A stretch of DNA of 64,000 nt from Escherichia coli (GCF_024298765.1 NZ_CP101210.1); one strand, 5' to 3'. Shown: positions 189 to 45,857, numbered from the stretch's first letter. A program made the numbers and translations. Notes: generated by a model from the letters alone, not told the origin.

Positions 189-209
189 TTCAGGCCCATT
201 GAGGATACC

Positions 210-2063: not shown

Positions 2064-2077
2064 GTTACCAGGTGACC

Positions 2078-4578: not shown

Positions 4579-5718
4579 ATGATGAAATCCAAAATGAAAT
4601 TGATGCCATTATTGGTGTCAGTAACCTTGATAAGCGGTTGCACAGTACTTCCGGGCAGCAATATGTCGACGATGGGCAAAGACGTCATCAAACAGCAGGA
4701 CGCTGATTTCGATCTCGACAAAATGGTGAATGTTTATCCGCTGACCCCGCGCCTGATTGACCAATTACGCCCACGCCCGAATGTAGCGCGCCCCAATATG
4801 ACGCTGGAAAGTGAGATCGCGAATTACCAGTATCGCGTCGGGCCGGGCGACGTTCTGAATGTCACCGTCTGGGATCACCCGGAACTCACCACGCCAGCCG
4901 GTCAGTACCGCAGCTCCAGCGACACCGGCAACTGGGTACAGCCTGACGGCACTATGTTTTACCCGTATATCGGCAAGGTCCACGTAGTCGGGAAAACGCT
5001 CGCTGAAATCCGCAGTGATATTACCGGGCGCTTAGCGACGTACATCGCTGACCCGCAGGTGGATGTTAATATCGCCGCCTTCCGCTCGCAAAAGGCCTAT
5101 ATCTCAGGTCAGGTGAATAAATCCGGTCAACAGGCGATCACCAACGTACCACTGACCATTCTCGACGCCATCAACGCCGCAGGTGGCCTGACCGACACCG
5201 CTGACTGGCGCAACGTGGTGCTAACACACAATGGTCGTGAAGAACGCATTTCTTTGCAGGCGCTGATGCAAAACGGCGACCTCAATCAGAACCGACTGCT
5301 TTACCCCGGCGATATTCTCTACGTGCCGCGTAATGATGATCTGAAAGTGTTTGTGATGGGTGAAGTGAAGAAACAGAGCACCCTGAAAATGGACTTTAGC
5401 GGCATGACCCTGACTGAAGCCCTGGGCAATGCCGAAGGTATCGACATGACCACCTCCAACGCCAGCGGCATCTTTGTCATTCGTCCGCTGAAAGGCGAGG
5501 GCGGGCGTAACGGCAAGATTGCCAATATCTACCAGCTGGATATGTCCGATGCCACGTCGCTGGTGATGGCGACAGAATTCCGCCTGCAACCTTATGACGT
5601 GGTGTATGTCACCACCGCCCCGGTTTCCCGCTGGAACCGTCTGATCAATCAGTTGCTGCCAACTATTAGCGGTGTCCGTTACATGACGGATACAGCCAGC
5701 GACATTCATAACTGGTAA
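4579..5718 (+). CDS. wza: Outer membrane polysaccharide export lipoprotein
   Basis: 379 aa, lipoprotein signal (LISGC); first gene of colanic acid cluster. Confidence 0.95.
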
Positions 5719-5723
5719 TCGTC

Positions 5724-6167
5724 ATGTTTAACAACATCTTAGTTGTCTGTGTCGGCAATATTTGCCGTTCCCCGACGGCGGAACGCTTACTGCAACGTTA
5801 TCACCCGGAGCTGAAAGTGGAGTCCGCTGGACTCGGCGCGCTGGTCGGTAAGGGCGCTGATCCTACCGCTATCAGCGTCGCCGCAGAACATCAACTGTCT
5901 CTGGAAGGTCACTGTGCCCGTCAAATCAGCCGCCGTCTGTGTCGCAACTACGACCTGATTTTGACCATGGAAAAGCGCCATATCGAACGCTTATGCAAGA
6001 TGGCACCCGAGATGCGCGGCAAAGTGATGCTGTTTGGTCACTGGGATAACGAATGTGAAATCCCCGATCCGTATCGCAAAAGCCGGGAAACGTTTGCAGC
6101 GGTGTACACATTACTTGAACGGTCTGCCCGCCAGTGGGCGCAGGCATTGAACGCAGAGCAGGTATAA
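5724..6167 (+). CDS. wzb: Low-molecular-weight protein-tyrosine phosphatase
   Basis: 147 aa, N-terminal CVGNICRSP P-loop motif. Confidence 0.95.
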   Translation: MFNNILVVCVGNICRSPTAERLLQRYHPELKVESAGLGALVGKGADPTAISVAAEHQLSLEGHCARQISRRLCRNYDLILTMEKRHIERLCKMAPEMRGKVMLFGHWDNECEIPDPYRKSRETFAAVYTLLERSARQWAQALNAEQV

Positions 6168-6169
6168 GA

Positions 6170-8332: not shown

Positions 8333-8356
8333 CGACGCCTGCATTCGCACCGCCCC

Positions 8357-8391
8357 GTAGGCCGGATAAGGCGCTCACGCCGCATCCGGCA
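8357..8391. repeat. REP element downstream of wzc
   Basis: GTAGGCCGGATAAGGCGC...GCCGCATCCGGCA palindromic unit. Confidence 0.7.
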
Positions 8392-8424
8392 AGCAAACCA
8401 GCTCATAAGCCGGGAGAACAACCT

Positions 8425-9264
8425 ATGAAAGACAATCCGCTGATCTCAATCTATATGCCGACCTGGAACCGCCAACAACTGGCGATTCGGGCGATAAAAT
8501 CGGTCTTGCGCCAGGACTACAGCAACTGGGAGATGATCATCGTGGATGATTGCTCCACCTCCTGGGAACAGCTTCAGCAGTACGTCACCGCCCTCAACGA
8601 TCCGCGTATTACCTACATTCACAACGACATTAACAGCGGGGCGTGCGCGGTACGTAACCAGGCGATTATGCTGGCGCAAGGGGAATACATCACCGGGATC
8701 GATGATGATGATGAATGGACGCCCAACCGCCTGAGCGTCTTCCTCGCCCATAAACAGCAACTGGTCACCCACGCCTTTTTGTACGCTAACGACTACGTTT
8801 GTCAGGGCGAAGTCTATTCCCAACCGGCAAGTTTGCCGCTGTATCCCAAATCGCCGTATTCACGCCGCCTGTTCTACAAACGCAATATCATTGGCAATCA
8901 GGTCTTTACCTGGGCGTGGCGTTTCAAAGAGTGTTTGTTCGATACCGAACTGAAAGCGGCACAGGATTACGACATCTTCCTGCGGATGGTGGTGGAGTAT
9001 GGCGAACCGTGGAAAGTGGAAGAAGCGACGCAGATCCTGCATATCAATCACGGTGAAATGCAGATCACCTCGTCACCGAAAAAATTCTCCGGATACTTCC
9101 ACTTTTACCGCAAGCACAAAGACAAATTCGACCGGGCCAGCAAAAAATATCAGCTGTTTACCCTCTACCAGATCCGCAATAAACGTATGACCTGGCGCAC
9201 TTTGCTGACGCTGCTGTCGGTGCGTAACGGCAAACGTCTGGCTGATGGTATTCGGGGGCGCTAA
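8425..9264 (+). CDS. wcaA: Colanic acid glycosyltransferase (GT2)
   Basis: 279 aa; GT2 N-terminal motifs (ISIYMPTWN, IIVDDCS). Confidence 0.9.
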   Translation: MKDNPLISIYMPTWNRQQLAIRAIKSVLRQDYSNWEMIIVDDCSTSWEQLQQYVTALNDPRITYIHNDINSGACAVRNQAIMLAQGEYITGIDDDDEWTPNRLSVFLAHKQQLVTHAFLYANDYVCQGEVYSQPASLPLYPKSPYSRRLFYKRNIIGNQVFTWAWRFKECLFDTELKAAQDYDIFLRMVVEYGEPWKVEEATQILHINHGEMQITSSPKKFSGYFHFYRKHKDKFDRASKKYQLFTLYQIRNKRMTWRTLLTLLSVRNGKRLADGIRGR

Positions 9265-9266
9265 AG

Positions 9267-9755
9267 ATGCTGGAAGATCTGCGCGCCAACAGCTGGAGTT
9301 TACGCCCGTGCTGCATGGTTCTTGCCTATCGCGTTGCTCATTTTTGTTCGGTGTGGCGCAAAAAGAACGTCCTCAACAATCTGTGGGCGGCCCCGCTGCT
9401 GGTGCTGTATCGCATTATCACCGAATGCTTTTTCGGTTATGAAATCCAGGCCGCCGCGACCATTGGCCGCCGCTTTACTATCCATCACGGTTACGCCGTA
9501 GTGATCAATAAAAACGTGGTAGCGGGGGATGATTTCACCATTCGCCACGGCGTCACTATCGGCAATCGTGGTGCCGATAACATGGCATGTCCACACATTG
9601 GCAACGGCGTCGAACTCGGAGCCAACGTCATTATTCTTGGTGATATCACGCTTGGTAACAACGTCACCGTGGGCGCGGGCAGCGTGGTGCTCGACTCTGT
9701 CCCGGACAACGCGCTGGTGGTGGGAGAAAAAGCGCGAGTGAAGGTAATTAAATGA
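9267..9755 (+). CDS. wcaB: Colanic acid acetyltransferase (hexapeptide-repeat)
   Basis: 162 aa; left-handed beta-helix hexapeptide repeats. Confidence 0.9.
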   Translation: MLEDLRANSWSLRPCCMVLAYRVAHFCSVWRKKNVLNNLWAAPLLVLYRIITECFFGYEIQAAATIGRRFTIHHGYAVVINKNVVAGDDFTIRHGVTIGNRGADNMACPHIGNGVELGANVIILGDITLGNNVTVGAGSVVLDSVPDNALVVGEKARVKVIK

Positions 9756-14632: not shown

Positions 14633-15598
14633 ATGAGTAAACAACGCATTTTTATCGCTGGCCATCGTGGGATGGTCGGTTCTGCCATCAGGCGGCAGCT
14701 CAAACAGCGCGGTGATGTGGAACTGGTATTACGCACCCGCGACGAGCTGAACCTGCTGGACAGCCGCGCGGTGCATGATTTCTTTGCCAGCGAACGCATT
14801 GACCAGGTCTATCTGGCGGCGGCGAAAGTGGGCGGCATTGTTGCCAACAACACCTATCCGGCGGATTTCATCTACCAGAACATGATGATTGAGAGCAACA
14901 TCATTCACGCCGCGCATCAGAACGACGTGAACAAACTGCTGTTTCTCGGATCGTCCTGTATCTACCCGAAACTGGCAAAACAGCCGATGGCAGAAAGCGA
15001 GTTATTGCAGGGCACGCTGGAGCCGACCAACGAGCCTTACGCCATTGCCAAAATCGCCGGGATCAAACTGTGCGAATCTTACAACCGCCAGTATGGACGC
15101 GATTACCGCTCAGTCATGCCGACCAACCTGTACGGGCCGCACGACAACTTCCACCCGAGTAACTCGCACGTGATCCCTGCATTGCTGCGTCGCTTCCACG
15201 AGGCGACGGCACAGAATGCGCCGGACGTGGTGGTGTGGGGCAGCGGTACACCGATGCGCGAATTTCTGCACGTTGATGATATGGCAGCGGCGAGCATTCA
15301 TGTGATGGAGCTGGCGCACGAAGTCTGGCAGGAGAACACCCGGCCGATGCTGTCGCACATTAACGTCGGCACGGGCGTTGACTGCACTATCCGTGAGCTG
15401 GCGCAAACCATCGCCAAAGTGGTGGGTTACAAAGGTCGGGTGGTTTTTGATGCCAGCAAACCGGATGGTACGCCGCGCAAACTGCTGGATGTGACGCGCC
15501 TGCATCAGCTTGGCTGGTATCACGAAATCTCACTGGAAGCGGGGCTTGCCAGCACTTACCTGTGGTTCCTTGAGAATCAAGACCGCTTTCGGGGGTAA
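14633..15598 (+). CDS. fcl: GDP-L-fucose synthase (colanic acid copy)
   Basis: 321 aa; N-terminal GHRGMVGSA; immediately after gmd. Confidence 0.95.
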
Positions 15599-16080
15599 TG
15601 ATGTTTTTACGTCAGGAAGACTTTGCCACGGTAGTGCGCTCCACCCCGCTTGTCTCCCTCGACTTTATTGTTGAGAACAGTCGCGGCGAGTTTCTGCTTG
15701 GCAAAAGAACCAACCGCCCGGCGCAGGGTTACTGGTTTGTGCCGGGAGGGCGCGTGCAGAAAGACGAAACGCTGGAAGCCGCATTTGAGCGGCTGACGAT
15801 GGCGGAACTGGGGCTGCGTCTGCCGATAACAGCAGGCCAGTTTTACGGTGTCTGGCAGCACTTTTATGACGATAACTTCTCCGGCACGGATTTCACCACT
15901 CACTATGTGGTGCTCGGTTTTCGCTTCAGAGTAGCGGAAGAAGAACTGTTACTGCCGGATGAGCAGCATGACGATTACCGCTGGCTGACGCCGGACGCAC
16001 TGCTCGCCAGTGACAATGTTCACGCTAACAGCCGCGCCTATTTTCTCGCTGAGAAGCGTGCCGGAGTACCCGGATTATGA
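15598..16080 (+). CDS. gmm: GDP-mannose mannosyl hydrolase (Nudix)
   Basis: 160 aa; synteny after fcl. Confidence 0.9.
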
Positions 16081-17300
16081 AAATACTGGTCTACGGCATT
16101 AACTACTCGCCGGAGTTAACCGGCATCGGCAAATACACCGGAGAAATGGTGGAATGGCTGGCGGCGCAAGGTCATGAGGTGCGGGTTATTACCGCACCGC
16201 CTTACTACCCGCAGTGGCAGGTGGGCGAGAACTATTCCGCCTGGCGCTACAAACGAGAAGAGGGGGCCGCCACGGTGTGGCGCTGCCCGCTGTACGTGCC
16301 AAAACAGCCGAGCACCCTGAAACGCCTGTTGCATCTCGGCAGTTTTGCCGTCAGCAGTTTTTTCCCGTTGATGGCGCAACGTCGCTGGAAGCCGGTTCGC
16401 ATTATCGGCGTGGTGCCAACGCTGTTTTGCACGCCGGGAATGCGCCTGCTGGCGAAACTCTCTGGTGCGCGTACCGTGCTGCATATTCAGGATTACGAAG
16501 TGGACGCCATGCTGGGGCTGGGCCTTGCCGGAAAAGGCAAAGGCGGCAAAGTGGCACAGCTGGCAACGGCGTTCGAACGTAGCGGACTGCATAACGTCGA
16601 TAACGTCTCCACGATTTCGCGTTCGATGATGAATAAAGCCATCGAAAAAGGCGTGGCGGCGGAAAACGTCATCTTCTTCCCCAACTGGTCGGAAATCGCC
16701 CGTTTTCAGCATGTTGCAGACACCGATGTTGATGCCCTTCGTAACCAGCTTGGCCTGCCGGATAACAAAAAAATCATTCTTTACTCCGGCAATATTGGTG
16801 AAAAGCAGGGGCTGGAAAACGTTATTGAAGCTGCCGATCGTCTGCGCGATGAACCGCTGATTTTTGCCATTGTCGGGCAGGGCGGCGGCAAAGCGCGGCT
16901 GGAAAAAATGGCGCAGCAGCGTGGACTGCGCAACATGCAATTTTTCCCGCTGCAATCGTATGACGCTTTACCCGCACTGCTGAAGATGGGCGATTGCCAT
17001 CTGGTGGTGCAAAAACGCGGCGCGGCAGATGCCGTATTGCCGTCGAAACTGACCAATATTCTGGCGGTAGGCGGTAACGCGGTGATTACCGCAGAAGCCC
17101 ACACAGAACTGGGACAGCTTTGCGAAACCTTTCCGGGCATTGCGGTTTGCGTGGAACCGGAATCGGTCGAGGCGCTGGTGGCGGGGATCCGTCAGGCGCT
17201 CCTGCTGCCCAAACACAACACGGTGGCACGTGAATATGCCGAACGCACACTCGATAAAGAGAACGTGTTACGTCAATTTATAAATGATATTCGGGGATAA
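16077..17300 (+). CDS. wcaI: Colanic acid glycosyltransferase
   Basis: 407 aa; GT-B type; synteny. Confidence 0.9.
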
Positions 17301-27646: not shown

Positions 27647-28642
27647 ATGAACGATAACGTTTTGCTCATAGGAGCTTCCGGATTCGTAGGAACCCGACTA
27701 CTTGAAACGGCAATTGCTGACTTTAATATCAAGAACCTGGACAAACAGCAGAGCCACTTTTATCCAGAAATCACACAGATTGGCGATGTTCGCGATCAAC
27801 AGGCACTCGACCAGGCATTAGTTGGTTTTGACACTGTTGTACTACTGGCAGCGGAACACCGCGATGACGTCAGCCCTACTTCTCTCTATTATGATGTCAA
27901 CGTTCAGGGTACCCGCAATGTGCTGGCGGCCATGGAAAAAAATGGCGTTAAAAATATCATCTTTACCAGTTCCGTTGCTGTTTATGGTTTGAACAAACAT
28001 AACCCTGACGAAAACCATCCACACGACCCTTTCAACCACTACGGCAAAAGTAAGTGGCAGGCAGAGGAAGTGCTGCGTGAATGGTATAACAAAGCACCAA
28101 CAGAACGTTCATTAACCATCATCCGTCCTACCGTTATCTTCGGTGAACGCAACCGCGGTAACGTCTATAACTTGCTGAAACAGATCGCTGGCGGCAAGTT
28201 TATGATGGTGGGCGCAGGGACTAACTATAAGTCCATGGCTTATGTTGGAAACATTGTTGAGTTTATCAAGTACAAACTGAAGAATGTTGCCGCAGGTTAT
28301 GAGGTTTATAACTACGTTGATAAGCCAGACCTGAACATGAACCAGTTGGTTGCTGAAGTTGAACAAAGTCTGAACAAAAAGATCCCTTCTATGCACTTGC
28401 CTTACCCACTAGGAATGCTGGGTGGATATTGCTTTGATATCCTGAGCAAAATTACGGGCAAAAAATACGCTGTCAGCTCTGTGCGCGTGAAAAAGTTCTG
28501 CGCAACTACACAGTTTGACGCAACGAAAGTGCATTCGTCAGGTTTTGTTGCACCGTATACGCTGTCGCAAGGTCTGGATCGAACTCTGCAGTATGAATTC
28601 GTCCATGCCAAAAAAGACGACATAACGTTTGTTTCTGAGTAA
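27647..28642 (+). CDS. gne: NAD-dependent UDP-N-acetylhexosamine 4-epimerase (Gne-like SDR)
   Basis: 331 aa; Rossmann GASGFVGTRL; sits between wcaM and galF where some E. coli lineages carry gne. Confidence 0.8.
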   Translation: MNDNVLLIGASGFVGTRLLETAIADFNIKNLDKQQSHFYPEITQIGDVRDQQALDQALVGFDTVVLLAAEHRDDVSPTSLYYDVNVQGTRNVLAAMEKNGVKNIIFTSSVAVYGLNKHNPDENHPHDPFNHYGKSKWQAEEVLREWYNKAPTERSLTIIRPTVIFGERNRGNVYNLLKQIAGGKFMMVGAGTNYKSMAYVGNIVEFIKYKLKNVAAGYEVYNYVDKPDLNMNQLVAEVEQSLNKKIPSMHLPYPLGMLGGYCFDILSKITGKKYAVSSVRVKKFCATTQFDATKVHSSGFVAPYTLSQGLDRTLQYEFVHAKKDDITFVSE

Positions 28643-29778: not shown

Positions 29779-30011
29779 AAATTGATCATCCATATATGGT
29801 GGATTGAATAAAAATAGAACTGCAGTGAACATTCAAAAGAAAAGATGATTACGTTATAAGAATGTTCCTGTCTTTTATTGAAAGTATTTAATAACAATAA
29901 GTTACAGCATGTATCGCTCGTACATAGATTTTCCTTGTATTTGACTTCGTTTGATTAGACTATTGGAAAATAGTGAAAAGTATTAAATAATTAGTACCTA
30001 TGATTCATTTT

Positions 30012-30050
30012 CAGTGAGTTGGTAACTGTTAAGCCAAGGGCGGTAGCGTG
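30012..30050 (+). promoter_or_regulatory. JUMPstart element with ops (GGCGGTAGCGTG, 30039-30050) in O-antigen operon leader
   Basis: cagtgagttggtaactgttaagccaagggcggtagcgtg; same 39-bp architecture as the wza leader copy. Confidence 0.85.
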
Positions 30051-30085
30051 TGTTTTGATCCTACCCACGTAATATGGACACAGGC

Positions 30086-30841
30086 CTAAGCGAGGTTCTG
30101 GTTTTCAAATTGTTCCGGACTGAGGCCGCCACACCAACTGTGCCGCCGCCACCGATTGTAATCACATTCGATATAATTAAACACCGTTGCCCGCATTATT
30201 TCCCGGCTGATAAAGTGTTCTCCATGGATACATTCCACTTTCAGCGAATGAAAGAAGCTTTCCACGCAGGCATTATCGTAGCAGCAACCTTTTGCGCTCA
30301 TACTTCCACGCAGATTATGCCGCTTCAGTTGCGCCGTCATGCGTGGCGACATTGACCAGCCAATAACGGCACGTGACCACAGGTCAATGACCACTGCCAG
30401 ATACAGCCAGCCTTCATCTGTACGTAAGTACGTGATGTCTCCTGCCCACTTCTGGTTCGGGCCACTGGCGTAAAAATCCTGCTCCAACAGATTTTCTGAC
30501 ACAGGCAGGCCGTGTGCGCGGTAGCTGACCGGGCTGAACTTCCGGGAGGCCTTTGCCCTCAGTCCCTGACGGCGCAGGCTTGCCGCCACGGTTTTTACGT
30601 TAAAGGGGTAACCCTGAGCACGCAGTTCATCCGTCAGGCGTGGGGCACCGTAACGCTGTTTTGACCGGGTAAAAGCCGCGAGGACAACGCTGTCGCAGTG
30701 TTGGCGGAACTGCTGACGCGTGCTTATCCTTGTCCGCCGCTGACACCACGTATACCAGCCGCTGCGGGCCACCCGGAGCACGCGGCACATTGCTTTGATG
30801 CTGAACTCAGCCTGATGTTTTTCAATAAAGACATACTTCAT
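30086..30841 (-). pseudogene. insF: IS3 OrfB transposase catalytic domain, apparently truncated by in-frame internal deletion (251 aa versus recalled 288 aa)
   Basis: [19 protein letters not shown]...; junction PRMTAQL|KRHNLRG at about 30326/30327; recalled intact OrfB has about 37 extra residues here including HTDRGGQY. Confidence 0.7.
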
Positions 30842-31146
30842 TTCAGGCGCTTCGCGAAGTATGTCGCGGCCTTTTGGAGGATAGCCAGCTCTTCATCCCG
30901 TTCTGCCAGCTGGCGTTTGAGACGTGCAATCTCGGTAGACATCTCCAGTTCACGTTCAGAAGACGTCTGCTGATTTTGCTGTTTACTGCGCCAGTTGTAG
31001 AGCTGTGATTCATACAGGCTGAGTTCACGGGCTGCGGCAGTAACACCGATGCGTTCAGCAAGCTTCAGGGCTTCACTGCGAAATTCAGGCGAATGCTGTT
31101 TACGGGGTTTTTTACTGGTTGATACTGTTTTTGTCATGTGAGTCAC
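30838..31146 (-). CDS. insE: IS3 OrfA (transposase N-terminal HTH protein)
   Basis: 102-aa ORF ...[50 protein letters not shown]...; leucine-zipper-like C-terminus. Confidence 0.9.
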
Positions 31147-31237
31147 CTCTGACTGAGAGTTTACTCACTTAGCCGCGTGTCCACTATTGCTGGGTAAGAT
31201 CATTTTTCTCTCAATCCTCATGATAAAGGAGGTTTAT

Positions 31238-32257
31238 ATGGTGATTTTCGTAACAGGCGGTGCAGGATATATTGGATCCCATACCATACTTGAGTTACTT
31301 AATAATGGTCATGATGCCGTTTCGATAGATAATTTTGCCAATTCCTCTATAGAATCATTAAAAAGAGTAGAGCAAATAACTAATAAGAAAATTATTTCTT
31401 ATCAAGGTGATATCCGTGATAAAAATCTACTTGATGAGATTTTTTCAAGACATCATATCGATGCTGTAATTCATTTTGCATCGTTAAAATCTGTAGGTGA
31501 GTCAAAGTTAAAGCCCTTAGAGTATTATTCTAATAATGTTGGTGGAACTTTAGTATTACTTGAATGCATGAAGAGATATAACATTAATAAAATGATATTT
31601 AGCTCTTCTGCTACTGTTTATGGGAATAACAGTATCCCTCCCCATACGGAAGATAGACGAATTGGTGAAACTACAAACCCATATGGGACATCGAAGTTTA
31701 TAATAGAAATGATTTTGAGTGATTATTGTGATAGCGATAATAATAAATCAGTAATTGCACTACGTTATTTTAATCCAATCGGAGCACATAAGTCCGGGAT
31801 GATTGGTGAAAATCCTAACGGGATTCCTAATAATCTGGTTCCTTATATATCTAAAGTTGCACAAAATCAACTTCCTGTATTAAATATTTATGGCAACGAT
31901 TATCCAACTAAAGATGGTACAGGAGTAAGAGACTATATACATGTCTGTGATTTGGCTAAAGGGCATGTTAAAGCATTAGAATATATGTTTTTAAATGATG
32001 TCAATTATGAGGCTTTTAATTTAGGTACTGGTCAAGGTTATTCTGTTTTAGAGATTGTAAAAATGTTTGAGATAGTCACTAAAAAGAGTATACCTTTTGC
32101 TATTTGTAATAGACGTGAGGGGGATGTTGCTGAGTCATGGGCGTCTGCTGATTTGGCACATGAAAAGCTTTCCTGGAAAGCGGAAAAAAAATTGAAAGAA
32201 ATGATCGAAGATGTATGGCGTTGGCAAACAAAAAATCCAAATGGATATAAAAAATAA
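31238..32257 (+). CDS. UDP-hexose 4-epimerase (GalE/Gne family), first O-antigen gene
   Basis: Start at ATG 31238 with AGGAGG RBS (track ORF begins 31187, overlapping the IS end); 339 aa; TGGAGYIGSHT Rossmann, NPYGTSK, YxxxK; AT-rich. Confidence 0.85.
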   Translation: MVIFVTGGAGYIGSHTILELLNNGHDAVSIDNFANSSIESLKRVEQITNKKIISYQGDIRDKNLLDEIFSRHHIDAVIHFASLKSVGESKLKPLEYYSNNVGGTLVLLECMKRYNINKMIFSSSATVYGNNSIPPHTEDRRIGETTNPYGTSKFIIEMILSDYCDSDNNKSVIALRYFNPIGAHKSGMIGENPNGIPNNLVPYISKVAQNQLPVLNIYGNDYPTKDGTGVRDYIHVCDLAKGHVKALEYMFLNDVNYEAFNLGTGQGYSVLEIVKMFEIVTKKSIPFAICNRREGDVAESWASADLAHEKLSWKAEKKLKEMIEDVWRWQTKNPNGYKK

Positions 32258-32275: not shown

Positions 32276-33292
32276 ATGAAAAATGTTGGTTTTATTGTTA
32301 CAAAATCAGAAATTGGTGGTGCACAAACATGGGTAAATGAAATATCTAACCTTATTAAAGAGGAATGTAATATATTTCTTATTACATCTGAAGAAGGATG
32401 GCTCACACATAAAGATGTCTTTGCTGGAGTTTTTGTCATACCAGGTATTAAAAAATATTTTGACTTCCTTACATTGTTTAAATTGAGAAAAATTTTAAAA
32501 GAAAATAATATTTCAACATTAATAGCAAGTTCTGCTAATGCCGGAGTTTATGCTAGGTTAGTTCGATTACTAGTCGACTTTAAATGTATTTATGTTTCGC
32601 ATGGATGGTCTTGTTTATATAATGGTGGTCGACTAAAATCAATTTTTTGTATTGTGGAGAAATACCTTTCTTTATTAACTGATGTTATATGGTGTGTTTC
32701 CAAAAGTGATGAAAAAAAAGCAATTGAGAAAATTGGTATAAAAGAAACAAAGATAATCACAGTATCGAATTCAGTGCCTCAGATGCCAAGATGTAATAAT
32801 AAACCACTCCAGTATAAAGTTCTGTTTGTTGGTAGGTTAACACACCCTAAGCGCCCCGAATTGTTAGCGAATGTAATATCGAAAAAGCCCCAGTATAGCC
32901 TCCATGTCGTAGGAGGGGGGGAAAGGTTAGAATCATTGAAGAAACAATTCAGTGAATGTGAAAATATTCATTTTATGGGTGAGGTCAATAATTTTTATAA
33001 CTATCATGAGTATGATTTATTTTCACTGATATCCGATAGTGAAGGTTTGCCTATGTCAGGCCTTGAGGCTCACACAGCTGCAATACCACTCCTTTTAAGT
33101 GATGTGGGCGGATGTTTTGAATTAATTGAGGGTAATGGGGTACTTGTGGAAAATACTGAAGACGACATTGGATATAAATTGGATAAAATATTCGATGACT
33201 ATGAAAATTATCGGGAACAGGCAATTCGTGCCTCCGGAAAATTTGTTATCGAGAACTATGCTTCAGCATATAAAAGCATTATTTTAGGTTGA
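32276..33292 (+). CDS. Glycosyltransferase, GT4 family (retaining, GT-B)
   Basis: 338 aa; EX7E-type motif SEGLPMSGLEAHTAAIPLL; AT-rich. Confidence 0.75.
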   Translation: MKNVGFIVTKSEIGGAQTWVNEISNLIKEECNIFLITSEEGWLTHKDVFAGVFVIPGIKKYFDFLTLFKLRKILKENNISTLIASSANAGVYARLVRLLVDFKCIYVSHGWSCLYNGGRLKSIFCIVEKYLSLLTDVIWCVSKSDEKKAIEKIGIKETKIITVSNSVPQMPRCNNKPLQYKVLFVGRLTHPKRPELLANVISKKPQYSLHVVGGGERLESLKKQFSECENIHFMGEVNNFYNYHEYDLFSLISDSEGLPMSGLEAHTAAIPLLLSDVGGCFELIEGNGVLVENTEDDIGYKLDKIFDDYENYREQAIRASGKFVIENYASAYKSIILG

Positions 33293-37355: not shown

Positions 37356-38735
37356 ATGAAAAAATTAACCTGCTTTAAAGCCTATGATATTCGCGGGAAA
37401 TTAGGTGAAGAACTGAATGAAGATATCGCCTGGCGCATTGGTCGCGCCTATGGCGAATTTCTCAAACCGAAAACCATTGTGTTAGGCGGTGATGTCCGCC
37501 TCACCAGCGAAACCTTAAAACTGGCGCTGGCAAAAGGTTTGCAGGATGCGGGCGTCGATGTGCTGGATATTGGTATGTCCGGCACCGAAGAGATCTATTT
37601 CGCCACGTTCCATCTCGGCGTGGATGGCGGCATTGAAGTTACCGCCAGTCATAATCCGATGGATTACAACGGCATGAAACTGGTGCGCGAAGGGGCTCGC
37701 CCGATCAGCGGCGATACCGGACTGCGCGATGTCCAGCGTCTGGCAGAAGCCAACGACTTTCCTCCCGTTGATGAAACCAAACGCGGTCGCTATCAGCAAA
37801 TCAACCTGCGTGACGCTTACGTTGATCACCTGTTCGGTTATATCAGTGTCAAAAACCTTACGCCGCTCAAGCTGGTGATTAACTCCGGGAACGGCGCGGC
37901 GGGTCCGGTGGTGGACGCCATTGAAGCCCGCTTTAAAGCCCTCGGCGCACCGGTGGAATTAATCAAAGTACACAACACGCCGGACGGCAATTTCCCCAAC
38001 GGTATTCCTAACCCGTTGCTGCCGGAATGCCGCGACGACACCCGTCATGCGGTCATCAAACACGGCGCGGATATGGGCATTGCCTTTGATGGCGATTTTG
38101 ACCGCTGTTTCCTGTTTGACGAAAAAGGGCAGTTTATCGAGGGCTACTACATTGTCGGCTTGCTGGCACAAGCGTTCCTCGAAAAAAATCCCGGCGCGAA
38201 GATCATCCACGATCCACGTCTCTCCTGGAACACCGTTGATGTGGTGACTGCCGCAGGCGGCACCCCGGTAATGTCGAAAACCGGACACGCCTTTATTAAA
38301 GAACGGATGCGCAAGGAAGACGCCATCTACGGTGGCGAAATGAGCGCCCACCATTACTTCCGTGATTTTGCTTACTGCGACAGCGGCATGATCCCGTGGC
38401 TGCTGGTCGCCGAACTGGTGTGTCTGAAAGGAAAAACGCTGGGCGAACTGGTGCGCGACCGGATGGCAGCATTTCCGGCAAGCGGTGAGATCAACAGCAA
38501 ACTGGCGGACCCCGTTGAGGCGATTAACCGCGTGGAACAGCATTTTAGCCGTGAGGCGCTGGCGGTGGATCGCACCGATGGCATCAGTATGACCTTTGCC
38601 GACTGGCGCTTTAACCTGCGCTCCTCCAACACCGAACCGGTGGTGCGCCTGAATGTGGAATCGCGCGGTAATATAGCATTAATGAATGAACAGGTTGAAT
38701 TTATTACAAAATTTTTAAACGGTGATGGTTTATGA
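37356..38735 (+). CDS. manB: Phosphomannomutase (O-antigen copy)
   Basis: 459 aa; near-identical to cpsG in the stretches compared except the last ~20 codons. Confidence 0.95.
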
Positions 38736-39289
38736 GAATATTAAAAATTATTATAAGTGTATTGTTGTTTATAAAAAAGAAAAGAAAAAAAATACCGGAC
38801 TCAGCAATAATAAACTTAACAAGTCATGTGGATAAACATTCAGTAATTGGAAAGTGTTGTTATATAGGGAAAAATGTATATATAACTAAAAGTATCATTG
38901 GGAATTACACATCTATTGCAAATAATGTCTCAATTGGTCAAGGTGAACATAAGGTTGATGCAGTTAGTACAAGTTCGATGTTCTACGATAATGAATTCGA
39001 AGATTTAACACAAAACGATTGTATTATAGGTAATGATGTGTGGCTCGGTACAGGAGTTACTGTATTACGAGGGGTAAGAATTGGTGATGGTGCTATTATT
39101 GGTGCTAATGCCGTTGTCACAAAAAATATTCCAGATTATTGTATTGCGGTAGGAGTACCTGCGAAAGTAATCAAAAGAAGATTACCAGTAAATGTTACTG
39201 AAAAAATAAAAGAGACTAAATGGTGGAATGATGAATATGAAGTGGCGAAGGATAAAATTATTTGCTTAACAAATGAATTAAAGTTATGA
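38732..39289 (+). CDS. O-acetyltransferase, hexapeptide-repeat (LbH) family
   Basis: 185 aa; repeats such as [31 protein letters not shown]; 4-bp overlap with manB; AT-rich. Confidence 0.75.
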
Positions 39290-40728
39290 ACAAAAAAGAA
39301 ATAATTATCTTGCTTATAGCCAGAATTCTACAGATTCTCATTAGTTTATTCACAATGAGATTGATGACAACGATTTTAAGCAATGAGCAAATGGGGGAGT
39401 ATTATATTTTTTTAGCAATCTATATGTTGGCATCATTGGGTATAATTAATCCAATAGGACAATATGTGAATCGCAACACTTATTTATGGTGGAGAGAGGG
39501 AGTACTAACCCAATATATTGATCGATATATTAATTTTGTTTTGTGTTTTTCGCTTATTTATGTGATTTTGTATGGACTTGGTGAATGTTTGTTTAAAGGA
39601 ATAAATACACCATTTTGGATGTTATTCTGTTATTTATATATAGTATGTTTATCTCTAAACCAATTTCTATTACATACTTTAAATATCTTAAATTTTAAGA
39701 TAGTATTTTCCATTATGACGTTGATGACTTCTGTATTAAGTTTATCAGGGGCATATTTATTTATTGAATATAGCATAGCTAAACAAACTGTTAGTATATA
39801 TTACTGGGTTGCAGGAATCATAATTGGCAATTTTATTTCTTTATGTATATGCGTTGTATATCTGAGATGTAGAAATACGTTCCAAAAATCAATTCCTAAA
39901 TCTATCAATGTAAGCATAAAAGAAGTTTTTAATTTTTGCTGTCCAATTATGATAACAACTTTGTTCATTTGGTTTCAAAGCTCTGGATATCGATTTGCTG
40001 TCGAGCAAATGTTTGGCTTAAAGTTTTTAGGTATACTAGCTGTATGTTTTGCTGTGTCAGGGCAAATAATGTCAGTGATTGAGTCTTTAGTGACACAGAT
40101 ATTTCAACCAACATTATTTAAGCATATGGATAATGTCAAAAATAGAAAGCAACATCTAGATTTTTATATTAATGAAAATATAGCAATTTATGCTAGTGTA
40201 TTATTTTTTTGTACTTTCTTTATGCGCGAAATATTTTTGGTTTTAGTTGACAATAAATATCTTCCTTACTTCTATATAGGTATAATAGCTTTATGGAGTG
40301 AATTTTTTAGGATATCAACCAATACTTTGTCTTTAGTGTTTTTTTGCGAAAAGAAAATGAAGGTGGGAATTTTTCCTTATTTAATTGGCTCATTAAGTCT
40401 GGCTTTTTCGATCGTCTTGTTCAGGTTGTTAAATGTAAATTTGGGTATTTTAATAGCTTTTGCTATTGGGATTGCACAATTGGCCTCCTTTATCGTTTGC
40501 TTAATTACGGTAAAAAAAATCTCTTATTTTAAAATAAATTCCATCTTCTTAATGAAGAGGATAATAATAGTACTACCTTCTGTGTTAATTGCCCATTGCA
40601 TTCCTAAATTTGAAATGATTAATGCTGTCCATTTTATTATCATTTTCGGTGTCGGTTTATTTTACTTAATCTCTTTAGTTACTTCTTTTATGTTTATTAA
40701 ACAACCAGGAGGTGTTTATGGAAGTTAA
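39286..40728 (+). CDS. wzx: O-antigen flippase (Wzx-like polytopic membrane protein)
   Basis: 480 aa, very hydrophobic with about 12 predicted TM segments; position in O-antigen cluster. Confidence 0.7.
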   Translation: MNKKEIIILLIARILQILISLFTMRLMTTILSNEQMGEYYIFLAIYMLASLGIINPIGQYVNRNTYLWWREGVLTQYIDRYINFVLCFSLIYVILYGLGECLFKGINTPFWMLFCYLYIVCLSLNQFLLHTLNILNFKIVFSIMTLMTSVLSLSGAYLFIEYSIAKQTVSIYYWVAGIIIGNFISLCICVVYLRCRNTFQKSIPKSINVSIKEVFNFCCPIMITTLFIWFQSSGYRFAVEQMFGLKFLGILAVCFAVSGQIMSVIESLVTQIFQPTLFKHMDNVKNRKQHLDFYINENIAIYASVLFFCTFFMREIFLVLVDNKYLPYFYIGIIALWSEFFRISTNTLSLVFFCEKKMKVGIFPYLIGSLSLAFSIVLFRLLNVNLGILIAFAIGIAQLASFIVCLITVKKISYFKINSIFLMKRIIIVLPSVLIAHCIPKFEMINAVHFIIIFGVGLFYLISLVTSFMFIKQPGGVYGS

Positions 40729-41569
40729 AATTATTGGGGGACTTGGCAATCAGATGTTTCAGTATGCAACTGCATTTGCTATTGCAAAAAGAACTCATCA
40801 AAATTTGACTGTTGATATATCTGATGCAGTAAAATATAAAACTCATCCATTAAGATTAGTTGAATTATCTTGTAGTTCAGAATTTGTAAAAAAAGCATGG
40901 CCATTTGAAAAATACTTATTTTCCGAAAAAATCCCACATTTCATGAAAAAAGAAATGTTCAGAAAGCATTACGTTGAGAAAAGTTTAGAGTATGATCCAG
41001 ATATTGATACTAAAAGTATAAATAAAAAAATCGTCGGTTATTTTCAAACTGAAAAATATTTTAAGGAATTTAGGCATGAGTTGATAAAGGAATTTCAACC
41101 TAAAACTAAGTTTAATAGTTATCAAAATGAATTGCTTAATTTAATTAAAGAAAATGATACTTGTTCATTGCATATTAGAAGAGGTGATTATGTTTCCAGT
41201 AAAATAGCAAATGAAACTCATGGTACATGTAGTGAAAAATATTTTGAACGTGCCATTGATTATTTGATGAATAAAGGTGTTATTAATAACAAAACCCTTC
41301 TCTTCATTTTTTCTGATGATATAAAGTGGTGCAGGGAAAATATATTTTTTAATAATCAAATATGTTTTGTTCAAGGTGATGCTTATCATGTTGAATTAGA
41401 TATGTTGCTTATGAGTAAATGTAAAAATAATATAATTTCAAATAGTTCTTTCAGTTGGTGGGCTGCTTGGTTAAATGAAAATAAAAATAAAACAGTAATT
41501 GCTCCGAGTAAATGGTTTAAGAAAGATATTAAACATGATATTATTCCCGAATCGTGGGTAAAATTATGA
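40718..41569 (+). CDS. Alpha-1,2-fucosyltransferase (GT11 family)
   Basis: Start at ATG 40718 with AGGAGG RBS; GT11 signature HIRRGDYV; N-terminal GGLGNQMFQYA; co-located with GDP-fucose genes. Confidence 0.8.
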   Translation: MEVKIIGGLGNQMFQYATAFAIAKRTHQNLTVDISDAVKYKTHPLRLVELSCSSEFVKKAWPFEKYLFSEKIPHFMKKEMFRKHYVEKSLEYDPDIDTKSINKKIVGYFQTEKYFKEFRHELIKEFQPKTKFNSYQNELLNLIKENDTCSLHIRRGDYVSSKIANETHGTCSEKYFERAIDYLMNKGVINNKTLLFIFSDDIKWCRENIFFNNQICFVQGDAYHVELDMLLMSKCKNNIISNSSFSWWAAWLNENKNKTVIAPSKWFKKDIKHDIIPESWVKL

Positions 41570-42432
41570 TGGAAGATACAAAAGAATTAATAACAGTAAT
41601 AATGCCTGTTTATAATGCGGAAAAATACATATATGAATCTATAAAAAGTATTTTGGTGCAGTCATATTCTAATTTTGAGTTCATCATTATTAATGATGGC
41701 TCAAAAGATTCTTCTGGAAAAATTATTGAAAACTTTCTCGATGATACGAGGATACGATATATAAATCGTGAAAATAAAGGTTTGGTCTTCACTCTGAATG
41801 AAGCTATTTCGTTATCAAGAGGAAATTATATTGCTCGAATGGATGCTGATGATATTTCACATCCCCTACGATTAGAAAAGCAACTAAATTTTCTACTAGA
41901 AAATCCAGATATAGCCGTAGTTGGGTGTTCTTCTTTTATTATTGACCAAAATTCTAAGGTTATAAATACGCGAAAACCACCTTTGACACCTTTAGTAAAT
42001 AAAGCATTGCTATTTTTTGGCCCAACATTAACTCATCCATCAGTGATGTTTAATAAAATACTACTTGGAGATCAGCTTTACTACAGTGATAAATATCTTC
42101 ATGTTGAAGATTATGACTTGTGGTTGAGGTTAATTAATCAATACAAAATAGCTAATATCAAAGATGTTCTTTTTTACTATCGAATTAATGAGTCAGGTGT
42201 TTCACAGACTAATTTATTTGAACAAAAAATTAATGCTGCTAAAGCATATAGTGAAATTAAATATGATGGTAAGTATAAAGACTTACTGGAAAAGTTAGAA
42301 GTCATACACCTGAGACATGAAATGGAGAAAAGTAAGGTCTTTCAGGCCGTATTATATATATTATTAAAGTATGAACATGATTCATTATTATTTTTAAAAT
42401 TAGGATATATATTACGATGGTTAATAAAATAA
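41554..42432 (+). CDS. Glycosyltransferase, GT2 family
   Basis: 292 aa; VIMPVYNAEKYI...IIINDGSKDSS and ARMDADD (DXD-type) motifs. Confidence 0.8.
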   Translation: MGKIMMEDTKELITVIMPVYNAEKYIYESIKSILVQSYSNFEFIIINDGSKDSSGKIIENFLDDTRIRYINRENKGLVFTLNEAISLSRGNYIARMDADDISHPLRLEKQLNFLLENPDIAVVGCSSFIIDQNSKVINTRKPPLTPLVNKALLFFGPTLTHPSVMFNKILLGDQLYYSDKYLHVEDYDLWLRLINQYKIANIKDVLFYYRINESGVSQTNLFEQKINAAKAYSEIKYDGKYKDLLEKLEVIHLRHEMEKSKVFQAVLYILLKYEHDSLLFLKLGYILRWLIK

Positions 42433-43316
42433 AAATAGCACTAATAAGTACAGAAAAAGCTAATCTTCCTGAAATTGAAGCCTATAAGGAGTATTTTTCG
42501 GAGCCATTTGATGTCTCTGTTGTTAATAAAAATGATGATTTAAGTTGTTATGATGTTTTATGGTACTTTATGGGGTTTAAAGGTAATAAAATAAACTCTA
42601 AACAGTTCTTGATTCATGAGTTTTCCTCAATTTCAGTACCACCATTTCCAAAAATAAAAAACGTTATCAAGAAATTTATTTTGCCTAAACCTAATTTGAG
42701 GGTTTTTTTAAATAAATCAGTGCAACAACAATTCGATTTTAATGATAGAGTTCCTTTTTGTTACCGAGATATGGGCGTCAATTATAAACCAGTAGTTGAA
42801 AGAAATAATAAAAAATATGATATATTATATGTGGGGGCAATTACTGGTAGAAAACTAGATGATGCATTAAATTTGATTTTGTCATATAAATTAGATTGTA
42901 AAATCGCAATTCTTGGTAAAGTGCCAGAAAAGTTCAAAGAAAAATATAAAAATACTGATGTTATATTTCTTGGGCAAGTTCCTTATAATCGGGTAGCCAC
43001 CATTATTGCAGAATCTAACTTGTGTTTAAATTGGATTCCGAATATTTATCCATATAACATGCAGACATCAACAAAATTCTTAGAGTATCTGGCACAAAAT
43101 AAACAAATAATATCGAATAGCTACCCTTGGGTTGACTCTTATTGTCAACAGCATAATATTGACTATATTAATGTCAATGATTCCAATTCTATTCGACAAG
43201 CATTGAACTCAGTCATAATCCAAAAATCAACACATATCCCCCCAAGTTGGCGAGAGGTTATTATGAATAGCGGGATAGAGAATCACATTAAATCATATTT
43301 TGAGGTAACAAAATGA
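42417..43316 (+). CDS. Putative glycosyltransferase (family not recognisable from motifs)
   Basis: 299 aa, AT-rich, 16-bp overlap with upstream GT2 gene; C-terminal region loosely resembles a GT-B C-terminal domain. Confidence 0.5.
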   Translation: MVNKIKIALISTEKANLPEIEAYKEYFSEPFDVSVVNKNDDLSCYDVLWYFMGFKGNKINSKQFLIHEFSSISVPPFPKIKNVIKKFILPKPNLRVFLNKSVQQQFDFNDRVPFCYRDMGVNYKPVVERNNKKYDILYVGAITGRKLDDALNLILSYKLDCKIAILGKVPEKFKEKYKNTDVIFLGQVPYNRVATIIAESNLCLNWIPNIYPYNMQTSTKFLEYLAQNKQIISNSYPWVDSYCQQHNIDYINVNDSNSIRQALNSVIIQKSTHIPPSWREVIMNSGIENHIKSYFEVTK

Positions 43317-44356
43317 TTTCTTACGGAGTGCTATTTCTCTTCTCTTATATCAATGCTGTACTTCAGAAGAGAGTAACCGTAACGTTACTATTTTTTATAA
43401 TGATAATTGTTTCTTTCTTTAAATATAATATTGGATTTGATTGGGGGAATTATCATGAAATTTACCTTCAGCAAGGAGATGGCTTTTTTTTTAATGAACC
43501 CCTATTTTCTCTCTTAATTATTCTTTCCAATAAGGTTGCATTAGAATATAAATATTTTATATCAATGTGCTCATTAATTACACTGATTGTTTATTATTCT
43601 GGTATGCGGTGTTTTGCAAGAGATATAAAAGAGTTAGCTTTAGCATTAACTTATTTTGTTGTCTCTTATTGCTACTTTGAACACTTTAATATTATTCGAC
43701 AAGCTTTAGCAATCGCTTTATTCTTTTATAGTTGGAAATATATTATTGAGACTAACTTTATAATGTATAGCCTCTTTATTTTTTTTGCATCTATGATTCA
43801 TGCGGCGGCGGTTGTATTGCTCCCATTTTACTTTTTCCTTAGAATTGATAATTTTAAACCTGTATATTATGGTATAGTGGTCTTATTTATTATTATTGTT
43901 GTTAGATTCGATATTAACAGCATCCTTTTAAGTTCACTTAATTTATTTAAAAATTTCGATTTTGTAGCCAGGTATTTAGCAAATTCAACAGATTTGGCTG
44001 ACTTTGCATCAAAAAAATCTGATCTTGGATTAAGTAAGATATACCCAGCAATTATATTTGTTTTCTGTTGTTTTTGGGGAGGGATTAGGTTAGAGTCTCG
44101 AAGAGACTATGTTTTTTTTAATGCTGGCTTTATTGCAATAACTTTACTGCTCTTAAGCTATCAGGTTGATATTTTGTTTAGATTTTTCTCTTTTTTTGAG
44201 ACTTCATTTGTCTTGTTGTACTGCATTATTTTTTCTGGTTTTAATAAAAAAAGTAAAATTATACTGCATATGGTTAATTTAATTGTATATACGGTAATGA
44301 CATTTAACATGTTATCAGTAATGGGCTTGATTCCTTATGAATCATACATTTTCTAA
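43313..44356 (+). CDS. wzy: O-antigen polymerase (Wzy-like polytopic membrane protein)
   Basis: 347 aa, highly hydrophobic and Phe/Ile/Leu-rich, very AT-rich; 4-bp overlap with upstream gene. Confidence 0.6.
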   Translation: MISYGVLFLFSYINAVLQKRVTVTLLFFIMIIVSFFKYNIGFDWGNYHEIYLQQGDGFFFNEPLFSLLIILSNKVALEYKYFISMCSLITLIVYYSGMRCFARDIKELALALTYFVVSYCYFEHFNIIRQALAIALFFYSWKYIIETNFIMYSLFIFFASMIHAAAVVLLPFYFFLRIDNFKPVYYGIVVLFIIIVVRFDINSILLSSLNLFKNFDFVARYLANSTDLADFASKKSDLGLSKIYPAIIFVFCCFWGGIRLESRRDYVFFNAGFIAITLLLLSYQVDILFRFFSFFETSFVLLYCIIFSGFNKKSKIILHMVNLIVYTVMTFNMLSVMGLIPYESYIF

Positions 44357-44837
44357 TAAGCTTCCCTCAGTTGTTTGTTGTATAGTAATATTTTAATATC
44401 ATTGCAGTGTGTAATTATTGTCAATAAGCTAATTTCTGTTATTTGCATGATTAATTCAGTTTGCAATGCTTGATGTAAAAAGATAAAGTGCACCCGTTTA
44501 CACAATGTTTATTTTGGCATGTCAAGTATAAGTTCTAAATAATACGTTTGTAATGTTTAGCATGTAAACATAATAGTTAAATAATATTAAACATGCAACA
44601 TGCCATTTGTTATTCTAATAAAACATATGTGTTGTGTGAATTATTTAATGTGGAAAGTGGTTGCGTATTATAAATTGTTCATATTGACGTTTAAGTCTTT
44701 TATAACTCCATGCTTGCATGTTAAAAACATTTCGCTATATATTCGCTATATATTATGGTAGGTGGTTTTTATCTAGGCAGATTTGTCTATTTAACTCTAA
44801 ATCTAAATCGCTTAAGAAAGTATGAGTAGGAGTATTT

Positions 44838-45857
44838 ATGGCTATTCTCGTTACAGGTGGTGCTGGTTATATTGCATCACATACTATACTGAGTTTGATA
44901 GAGCAGGGTAATGAAGTAATTATTATTGATAATTTATCAAATTCATATTATGATTCGTTATTGAAAATAAAAGAGATTACTGGATGTGATTGTCTTTTTT
45001 ATAAAGGAGATATCCTTGACAAAAAACTCTTGCTAAAAATATTTGATGAAAATAATATCACTGCTGTGATGCATTTTGCTGGTGCAAAGTCTGTAAGTGA
45101 ATCTGTTATCAGACCTTTGCAATACTATCGAAATAATGTCTCTGGCACTTTTTCTTTAGTTGAGGCAATGGAGGAGTCTGGTGTAGAAAATTTAATATTT
45201 AGCTCTTCAGCAACTGTCTATGGTGAGCCAAAGATTATTCCTGTGAATGAAAGTTGTGCTATAGGTGGTACTACAAATCCGTATGGAACGTCCAAGTTAT
45301 TTGTAGAGAACTTTTTGCGGGATTATTCTAAGGCATCCCCTAATTTTAAAACTATAGTATTAAGATATTTTAACCCTATCGGTGCTCACTCATCTGGAAA
45401 AATAGGTGAAGATCCTAACGGAATTCCGAATAACTTGATGCCCTTTATATGCCAGGTTGCTATCGGTAAACAAAAAACGCTCAAGATCTACGGAAATGAT
45501 TATCCTACTAAAGATGGTACTGGGATTCGCGATTATATTCATGTTATGGATCTTGCTGAAGGTCATGTTGCTGCATTAAATAATATTAATCAAGGAGCTA
45601 ATTATAGAGTTTACAACCTTGGAACAGGAATTGGATACTCTGTGTTGGAATTATTAGAAGCATTTCAGAAAGTTACAACTCGGAGAGTTCCCTATGTTTT
45701 TACTAAAAGGCGTTCAGGTGATATCGCTGAATGTTGGTCTGATCCTACCAAAGCGTATGAAGAATTAGGATGGAAAGCAAGGCGAGGGTTAGAAGATATG
45801 ATTCGTGATGCATGGAATTGGCAGCAAAAAAATCCAAATGGATTTAAGAAAGTTTAA
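44838..45857 (+). CDS. UDP-hexose 4-epimerase (GalE/Gne family), last O-antigen gene
   Basis: 339 aa; TGGAGYIASHT, NPYGTSK, IYGNDYPTKDGTGIRDYIHV; paralogous to the 31238 gene. Confidence 0.85.
   Translation: MAILVTGGAGYIASHTILSLIEQGNEVIIIDNLSNSYYDSLLKIKEITGCDCLFYKGDILDKKLLLKIFDENNITAVMHFAGAKSVSESVIRPLQYYRNNVSGTFSLVEAMEESGVENLIFSSSATVYGEPKIIPVNESCAIGGTTNPYGTSKLFVENFLRDYSKASPNFKTIVLRYFNPIGAHSSGKIGEDPNGIPNNLMPFICQVAIGKQKTLKIYGNDYPTKDGTGIRDYIHVMDLAEGHVAALNNINQGANYRVYNLGTGIGYSVLELLEAFQKVTTRRVPYVFTKRRSGDIAECWSDPTKAYEELGWKARRGLEDMIRDAWNWQQKNPNGFKKV

Follow-up and report, generated by a model that had tools for sequence, protein, structure and literature searches.

A compact GT-B glycosyltransferase of the Escherichia coli O128 O-antigen locus and its candidate linkage

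Our analysis concerns a 64,000-nucleotide stretch of Escherichia coli DNA (NZ_CP101210.1 in GCF_024298765.1; the window in what follows), which is the O128 O-antigen locus, and within it the gene at 42417..43316 on the plus strand. This gene almost certainly encodes a GT-B glycosyltransferase (GT) of O-unit assembly, and its 299-amino-acid (aa) product, the RefSeq 'glycosyltransferase' WP_000247459.1, belongs to a discrete family of unusually compact (~300 aa) GT4-like enzymes. Elimination among the GTs of the cluster makes it moderately probable that the protein is the UDP-GalNAc:Gal-alpha1,3-GalNAc-PP-Und beta-1,4-N-acetylgalactosaminyltransferase of the pathway (Gal, galactose; GalNAc, N-acetylgalactosamine; PP-Und or Und-PP, undecaprenyl diphosphate). 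A sequence-only reading of this DNA had described the product as a candidate serotype-specific GT; the Pfam matches of the family, the GT-B fold and the RefSeq annotation support this proposal, which was right without being new. The gene and its generic glycosyltransferase function are already annotated and the O128 cluster is already published. The 2003 paper on the cluster reportedly gave its non-pathway genes the names wbsH to wbsL, following the order found here; the gene would then be wbsL, an unconfirmed name that we use here for convenience. Literature searches for wbsL or its accessions gave unrelated acronyms only and cluster-member records gave generic names; 'O128-wbsI' and WbsJ do occur in the literature searched.

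A compact GT-B family with a distinct donor-site signature

The wbsL open reading frame (ORF) starts with ATG and is 900 bp long. Its extent, length and AT-richness are as previously described: the GC content is 29.8% versus 48.3% for the whole window, and the gene lies in a low-GC block from ~38.5 to 45.5 kb. The probability that a sequence so composed stays open over 299 codons by chance is about 3e-12. The ORF coordinates also bear out the reported overlaps, of 16 bp with the upstream GT2 ORF (which ends at 42432) and of 4 bp (ATGA) with wzy (which starts at 43313). Shine-Dalgarno-like sequences precede both start codons, AGGA 11 nt ahead of the ATG of wbsL and GAGG 8 nt ahead of that of wzy. 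The encoded protein has a pI of 9.1 and no transmembrane (TM) segment.

The gene is restricted to O128 strains among the genomes compared. It is 100% identical to the gene of the O128:H27 strain 90-9281 and 99.6% identical to that of O128ac:H12 AW1.7, and it is present in 22 of 5,426 complete E. coli genomes, at an identity of at least 99.3% and always beside an 'O128 family O-antigen polymerase'. More sensitive blastn searches revealed no diverged copies in other E. coli serogroups beyond these 22 O128 genomes. In O128 strains, wbsL follows the GT2 gene and precedes the O128 wzy, and the wzx and wzy on either side of it bear the 'O128 family' name. A pseudogene fragment in related strains, which would have told against the proposal, is seen in one genome at most: wbsL is annotated as a coding sequence, with the same coordinates as the ORF here, in E. 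coli O128 genomes, but 1 of the 22 copies is apparently frameshifted. In this genome, NZ_CM143724.1 (E. coli strain CFIAFB20190167), 898 of the 900 bp are matched and the annotation gives two hypothetical proteins, so that either the strain may be O-rough or its assembly may be in error.

Membership in the GT-B superfamily emerges mainly at the level of the family. Scanned alone, WbsL matches PF13524 with 16.0 bits (E 0.012; gathering cut-off 25) and PF00534 with 14.6 bits (cut-off 26.4), both within residues 125-237, as well as the NCBIfam model TuaH with 17 bits (E 0.0017; cut-off 550); it thus does not reach the gathering threshold of the Pfam GT1-type C-domain clan (PF00534/PF13692/PF13524). 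Among 46 diverse family members scanned singly, however, 39 match PF13692 (E<=0.01, best E 1.8e-10), 27 PF00534, 25 PF13524 and 6 TuaH, while an NCBIfam equivalog was found for none of the 46. The earlier description of a protein 'without recognisable family motifs' therefore holds for WbsL taken alone but not for its family, and these searches returned no confident assignment to a non-GT family. Judged from these matches, the link of the family to the clan is real but divergent. A word-index search with WbsL gave 123 matches. In an exhaustive profile search, the number of representative clusters recovered was 357 with a limit of E<=1e-30 and rose to 683 with E<=1e-10; at E<=1e-3, the 8,823 matching clusters merge into the general GT1 clan. 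Family members are nearly all 290-315 aa long and match end to end.

The best relative of the WbsL profile in the PDB is WbnH (E 1.2e-4), and the top structural neighbours of the WbsL model are all retaining GT4 enzymes. The model shows a two-Rossmann-domain GT-B fold: two Rossmann-like beta/alpha/beta domains are separated by a cleft, and the C-terminal helix returns to the N-domain. By membership, WbsL is thus in the GT-B/GT1 clan and GT4-like while failing one defining GT4 motif.

Residue conservation was measured over 120 homologues. The reduced N-terminal Rossmann-like (acceptor) domain (residues ~1-122; 42417..42782) comprises six strands and three helices according to DSSP of the model, and showed neither a Pfam N-domain match nor profile similarity to the GT4 N-domain (Glyco_transf_4). 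Its family invariants are P18-E19 at the start of helix alpha1, G53, H67-E/D68, S73, K81, K85, R95, N99 and Y116-R117-D118-M119-G120. A basic amphipathic helix in the model at residues about 78-88 (PKIKNVIKKFI; 42648..42680) has the highest hydrophobic moment in the protein and a net charge of +4, with K81 kept in 118/120 and K85 in 120/120 homologues; it may contact the membrane or Und-PP.

The C-terminal Rossmann (nucleotide-sugar) domain (residues ~123-275; 42783..43241), which is delimited by the sub-threshold Pfam matches and by hhalign, carries Y138-x-G140, R145, G186 and N205, followed by the family signature N205-x2-P208-(D/N)209-x2-P212-x3-Q216-T-S-T-K220-x2-E223-Y224 (43029..43088). 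Within it, Q216, T217, S218, T219, K220, E223 and Y224 are conserved in 119-120 of the 120 homologues, and the signature takes the place of the EX7E motif of GT4. The 'loose GT-B-like C-terminal region' noticed in the sequence-only reading corresponds to this domain; the peptides cited for it, KYDILYVGAITGRKLDD and TSTKFLEYLAQNKQIIS, lie at residues 133-149 and 217-233. Its two negative observations were also accurate. A string search found no D.D motif anywhere in the protein, and DxD is not required for the GT-B fold superfamily; the four E.{7}E strings, which start at residues 13, 21, 280 and 288, all lie away from the canonical C-domain helix.

Alignment with WbnH specifies which parts of the GT4 donor site are retained. 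In retaining GT4 enzymes the substrate-binding residues are H109, K192, E256 and E264 of WbnH, equivalent to H118, K202, E274 and E282 of PimA (PMC4506291), and the WbnH copy of the window has all four. With hhalign, the WbsL family profile aligned to a 28-sequence WbnH-family profile over WbsL residues 131-248 (E 2.5e-6), whereas only 62 residues aligned to the single WbnH sequence; the N-domains gave no alignment even with the 28-sequence profile. The alignment pairs K192 with R145, P259 with P212 and E264 with E223. The ribose-binding second Glu of EX7E (WbnH E264/PimA E282) is therefore kept, E223 being invariant in 120/120, and the phosphate-binding Lys (K192/K202) becomes R145, which is Arg in 93/120 and Lys in 5/120 homologues. 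In contrast, the 'GR' arginine (R187) is not kept, being A141 in WbsL, and the first Glu, which contacts the donor sugar (E256/E274), has no counterpart: the position of M215, eight residues ahead of E223, is never acidic and holds I, L, M, Q, F or V in all 120 homologues. A 6-residue insertion, Y213-S218 in the hhalign alignment, carries the invariant Q216-T-S and is followed by T219-K220. H67, kept in 118/120, stands at a strand end like H109, the N-domains themselves showing no sequence or profile alignment.

Compared with GT4-type retaining GT-B enzymes of the CAZy classification (PimA 2GEJ, PglH/WlaC 6EJI, PglA 8DQD, BshA 6N1X, WbnH 4XYW), WbsL is ~40-80 residues shorter and its stripped-down N-domain does not resemble Glyco_transf_4 domains in sequence; in the C-domain, the first Glu of EX7E is missing and the insertion with the invariant Q-T-S-T-K is present. 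Moreover, elimination predicts that its linkage is beta (inverting) rather than alpha. The best single-sequence profile matches of WbsL are PF13524 (Glyco_trans_1_2) and TuaH (teichuronic acid biosynthesis protein). The PF13524 consensus, by what is our own reading of it, presumably has a basic residue three before the conserved Glu, as in K220-x-x-E223. However, WbsL lies far below the curated cut-offs of these models, which themselves have no characterised linkage stereochemistry. Inverting GT-B enzymes with a GT4-like fold do exist, namely GumK (GT70, 2HY7) and the selenosugar synthase SenB (8FBX/8JJN), but they show no detectable sequence relationship to WbsL and use different substrates.

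The O128 pathway and the proposed reaction

The O128 O-unit is a pentasaccharide with a tetrasaccharide backbone and one branch; it starts with GalNAc and is composed of D-Gal, D-GalNAc and L-fucose (Fuc) (PMC10304059). Because this unit is begun by WecA/Gnu, four GTs are needed, and the cluster holds exactly four. The structure, said to have been reported by Sengupta in 1995 and Ali in 2008, is reportedly ->6)-[alpha-L-Fuc-(1->2)]-beta-D-Gal-(1->3)-beta-D-GalNAc-(1->4)-alpha-D-Gal-(1->3)-beta-D-GalNAc-(1->.

Three of the four enzymes can be matched to linkages. The canonical GT4 (338 aa, reportedly wbsH; 32276..33292, plus strand) matches both Pfam domains, N and C, and aligns over its full length to E. 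coli O86 WbnH (PDB 4XYW; phmmer E 2e-225), to which it is 98% identical, with 7 substitutions in 338 aa. WbnH is a retaining enzyme that makes GalNAc-alpha1,3-GalNAc and requires the PP-lipid part of its acceptor (PMC4506291). Its gene is common to O90/O127-type clusters at an identity of at least 98%. The GT2 (reportedly wbsK; 41566..42432, plus strand; PF00535, E 1.6e-33), which has a DxDD motif (DADD at residue 93), shares 35% identity (E 5e-37) with the only GT2 in the O90/O127-family cluster. All DxDD GT2 enzymes, among them WbiP, WbgO and WbwC, transfer Gal or glucose (Glc) in beta1-3 linkage onto GalNAc or GlcNAc (N-acetylglucosamine) (PMC4202792), and the O128 GT2 is accordingly predicted from its sequence to be a beta-1,3-galactosyltransferase making Gal-beta1,3-GalNAc. 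The GT11 WbsJ (40718..41569, plus strand; PF01531, E 3.7e-33, and named so in RefSeq) is a biochemically characterised alpha-1,2-fucosyltransferase (PMC4202792, PMC7685785) and the only characterised GT of the O128 pathway (PMC7685785).

The H-antigen-type pathways of O86, O90 and O127 (WbnH - WbnJ/WbiP - WbnK/WbiQ) share with O128 the WbnH enzyme (98%), a DxDD GT2 (35%) and a GT11, as well as gne, the GDP-Fuc genes and gnu. However, the O90/O127-type cluster has only the WbnH/GT2/GT11 trio as GTs and no counterpart of WbsL, whereas O128 has one more GT and one more sugar. WbsL is assigned beta-GalNAc-(1->4)-Gal because this is the only linkage left on the reported O128 structure after the WbnH copy, GT2 and WbsJ.

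In the pathway that we propose, WecA and Gnu would supply GalNAc-PP-Und, to which the WbnH copy would add the alpha-1,3-linked second sugar. WbsL, as a cytoplasmic and peripherally membrane-associated enzyme of the assembly line, would then use UDP-GalNAc to attach a beta-1,4-linked GalNAc, as the third sugar, to Gal-alpha1,3-GalNAc-PP-Und. The DxDD GT2 would follow with beta-1,3-Gal and WbsJ with alpha-1,2-Fuc, before Wzx flips the finished unit and Wzy polymerises it. A beta linkage made from a UDP-alpha-sugar implies an inverting, single-displacement mechanism. The catalytic base would be a family-invariant carboxylate of the acceptor domain, with E19 at the N-terminus of helix alpha1 and D118 as candidates; R145 and K220, along with the N-terminal end of helix 219-226 (T217, S218, T219), may stabilise the UDP leaving group, and the amphipathic helix at about 78-88, with K81, K85, R95 and R117, may keep WbsL attached to the membrane and to its Und-PP acceptor. 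In inverting GT-B families, GT1, GT9 and GT30 among them, the base is found where helix alpha1 begins. An inverting assignment fits, but is not proved by, the loss of the first Glu of EX7E, the invariant E19 at this very site and the precedents of GumK and SenB.

We tentatively suggest that WbsL-like proteins form a distinct GT-B family that has a GT4-like scaffold and is inverting, with EX7E replaced by (D/N)-x2-P-x3-QTSTK-x2-EY and E19 or D118 as the base. Equally tentatively, such a family could span ~350-680 representative clusters in Proteobacteria, Firmicutes and Bacteroidota, always in Wzx/Wzy polysaccharide loci.

Gene neighbourhoods and alternative explanations

The role of WbsL can be compared with its genomic context in other bacteria. 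The six-gene block acetyltransferase-wzx-GT11-GT2-wbsL-wzy is syntenic in Citrobacter freundii, Escherichia albertii EAOg8 and Acinetobacter ursingii. The orthologue in C. freundii O-loci has 56% identity, and a WbnH-like GT4 of 342 aa is encoded upstream of gmd. One C. freundii genome has the acetyltransferase truncated to 79 aa and no wzx called (L003 6283-8296), and in another C. freundii locus (L004 1-6301) a gmd-fcl-gmm-wcaI-manC-manB block of the colanic-acid type directly adjoins the module and a WbnH-like gene is absent from the surrounding 10 kb; we regard these arrangements as signs of recombination or decay.

In E. albertii EAOg8, the O128 module is kept at ~89% protein identity (89% for the WbsL orthologue), the proximal GT4 is a different 364-aa protein (genes at 612-1706), fcl is missing, and colitose-pathway-like genes (epimerase/reductase plus a DegT-type enzyme, 14879-16965) follow gnd. 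The EAO8 main chain resembles that of O128 and its terminal sugar is colitose (PMC6927306), which the retained GT11 presumably transfers instead of fucose. Thus, WbsL travels with the main chain and not with the terminal sugar, which supports a role in main-chain synthesis.

More distant relatives occur in similar surroundings. In the capsule locus of A. ursingii, where the orthologue has 50% identity, a 395-aa GT4 and an initiating transferase of the Bac_transf type come after the block; the member in Vibrio cholerae, with 39% identity, stands between a GT2 and an EpsG-type Wzy, and here too a GT4 and Bac_transf come next. The V. cholerae GT4 (L009 11038-12171), which has a canonical EX7E, is 53% identical to that of A. 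ursingii (L005 11936-13123), while the Wzy proteins of the two loci are unrelated and their GT2s are alike in the N-terminal halves only. The likeness of the GT4s suggests a shared proximal disaccharide as the possible substrate of WbsL-like enzymes. A member in the Gram-positive Halalkalibacter lies in a Wzx-type locus with two canonical GT4s. Moreover, two natural fusions, P0190 (630 aa) and P0196 (586 aa), join an N-terminal GT2 domain to a C-terminal WbsL-like domain, and mirror the GT2-then-WbsL-like adjacency of E. coli, Citrobacter, Acinetobacter and Vibrio. GT genes are found in the inverse order of their function in 39% of E. coli clusters (PMC7685785), and the order initiating transferase <- GT4 <- (wzy) <- WbsL <- GT2 <- GT11, whose wzy-GT4-initiating transferase part is that of Acinetobacter and Vibrio, runs opposite to the sequence of steps proposed here. 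The reverse gene order, the fusions and the synteny together speak for a GT of the main chain whose step follows that of the proximal GT4 and precedes that of GT2.

Several points weigh against a beta-1,4-GalNAc transferase. All top structural neighbours of WbsL are retaining enzymes and some database records label its relatives 'family 4', so that from the GT4-like fold alone an alpha linkage would be predicted. Position 209, the nearest alternative to the first Glu of EX7E, is Asp in 81/120 and Asn in 37/120 homologues (Asn in WbsL), and might stand in for this Glu. As for the repeat unit, the literature searched gave its composition and topology only and no written-out structure; the anomeric configurations used in the elimination are those of the structure reportedly given by Sengupta and Ali. 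O128 carries, on that reported structure, alpha-Gal where WbnH adds GalNAc, despite the 98% identity, and the alpha-Gal assignment of WbsH therefore assumes a donor switch or promiscuity. The few substitutions of the WbnH copy may switch or relax donor specificity, as in the blood-group A versus B transferases, and a 2026 preprint describes O128 strains that differ by a replacement between hexose and N-acetylhexosamine. Furthermore, the literature searched gave no biochemical data for any member of the WbsL family.

The same evidence allows WbsL to be read as a retaining, GT4-type alpha-Gal-(1->3)-GalNAc enzyme, with the WbnH copy redundant or doing something else. Although the fold neighbours favour this explanation, as does the near identity of WbsH to a GalNAc rather than a Gal transferase, we consider it unlikely: it would leave the beta-GalNAc step without an enzyme, as there are only four GTs and WbsH is retaining and takes a PP-lipid acceptor, the first Glu of EX7E is absent across the family, and each examined locus with a family member also has a separate canonical GT4 with an intact EX7E. 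A swap of roles, by which WbsL would be the inverting beta-1,3-galactosyltransferase making Gal-beta1,3-GalNAc and GT2 would make the beta-GalNAc linkage, draws on the fact that elimination gives WbsL only one of two beta linkages and that GT2 adjacency and fusions do not fix the order. We judge it quite unlikely in view of the DxDD motif of GT2, which marks beta-1,3 transfer of Gal or Glc onto GalNAc or GlcNAc (PMC4202792), of the 35% identity of GT2 to the only GT2 of O90/O127, which must make Gal-beta1,3-GalNAc, and of the reverse gene-order rule, which puts WbsL before GT2 in function.

Finally, WbsL could be a GT-B-fold protein that is no main-chain transferase, for example an epimerase, a phosphotransferase, an enzyme that adds a non-stoichiometric substituent, or a non-catalytic protein that assists Wzy or GT2 as partner or chaperone. 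Its position below the curated Pfam and NCBIfam cut-offs, the recurrent adjacency to EpsG-type Wzy, the occurrence of epimerases and TagF-like enzymes among GT-B folds and the variation of O128 strains in composition and acetylation would all be in line with such a role, which is nevertheless very improbable given the conserved donor-site residues and the GT count.

Implications and other features of the locus

For genome annotation the result has little consequence, the gene being annotated already; what remains is the more modest question of the stereochemistry and specificity of a compact GT-B family with a non-canonical donor-site motif. If WbsL-like proteins are indeed a separate inverting family, they would deserve their own CAZy family or subfamily and globo/H-type glycans could be built on lipid-PP acceptors with a new beta-1,4-GalNAc transferase. 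A beta linkage would caution against reading 'retaining' stereochemistry off a GT4-like fold or label, and WbsL, with its 299 aa and neither metal nor TM segment, would be a small and tractable scaffold for studies of mechanism switches in GT-B enzymes. Assigning the remaining O128 steps could also open the enzymatic synthesis of the blood-group-H/globo-like epitope Fuc-alpha1,2-Gal-beta1,3-GalNAc-beta1,4-Gal on defined carriers.

The gene order in the window is gnu (27647-28642), galF, an IS3-type insertion, gne (31238-32257, plus strand), the GT4 gene, gmd, fcl, gmm, manC and manB, followed by the hexapeptide acetyltransferase gene, wzx, GT11 (WbsJ), GT2, wbsL, wzy, a second galE, gnd, ugd and wzz. 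The six-gene module begins with the hexapeptide (CatB-related) O-acetyltransferase (38732..39289, plus strand), continues with the O128-family flippase Wzx (39286..40728, plus strand; Polysacc_synt_3), and ends with the O128-family O-antigen polymerase Wzy (43313..44356, plus strand), a member of the EpsG family (PF14897, E 8.8e-40) that bears this name in RefSeq.

Two paralogues of GalE/Gne-type UDP-hexose 4-epimerases (31238-32257 and 44838-45857, both on the plus strand), which are 55% identical, flank the O128-specific genes. The second of them is low in GC and is separated from wzy by a 480-bp non-coding gap (44357-44837). At the other end of the cluster, the window contains ~1,150 more bases between galF and gne (29779-31237) than the O128:H27 strain 90-9281. 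An ORF on the minus strand of this extra segment (30086-30841) is a fragment of an IS3-family transposase with rve, rve_2, rve_3 and HTH_21 domains, which places an insertion sequence (IS) at the 5' edge of the O-antigen cluster, directly upstream of gne.

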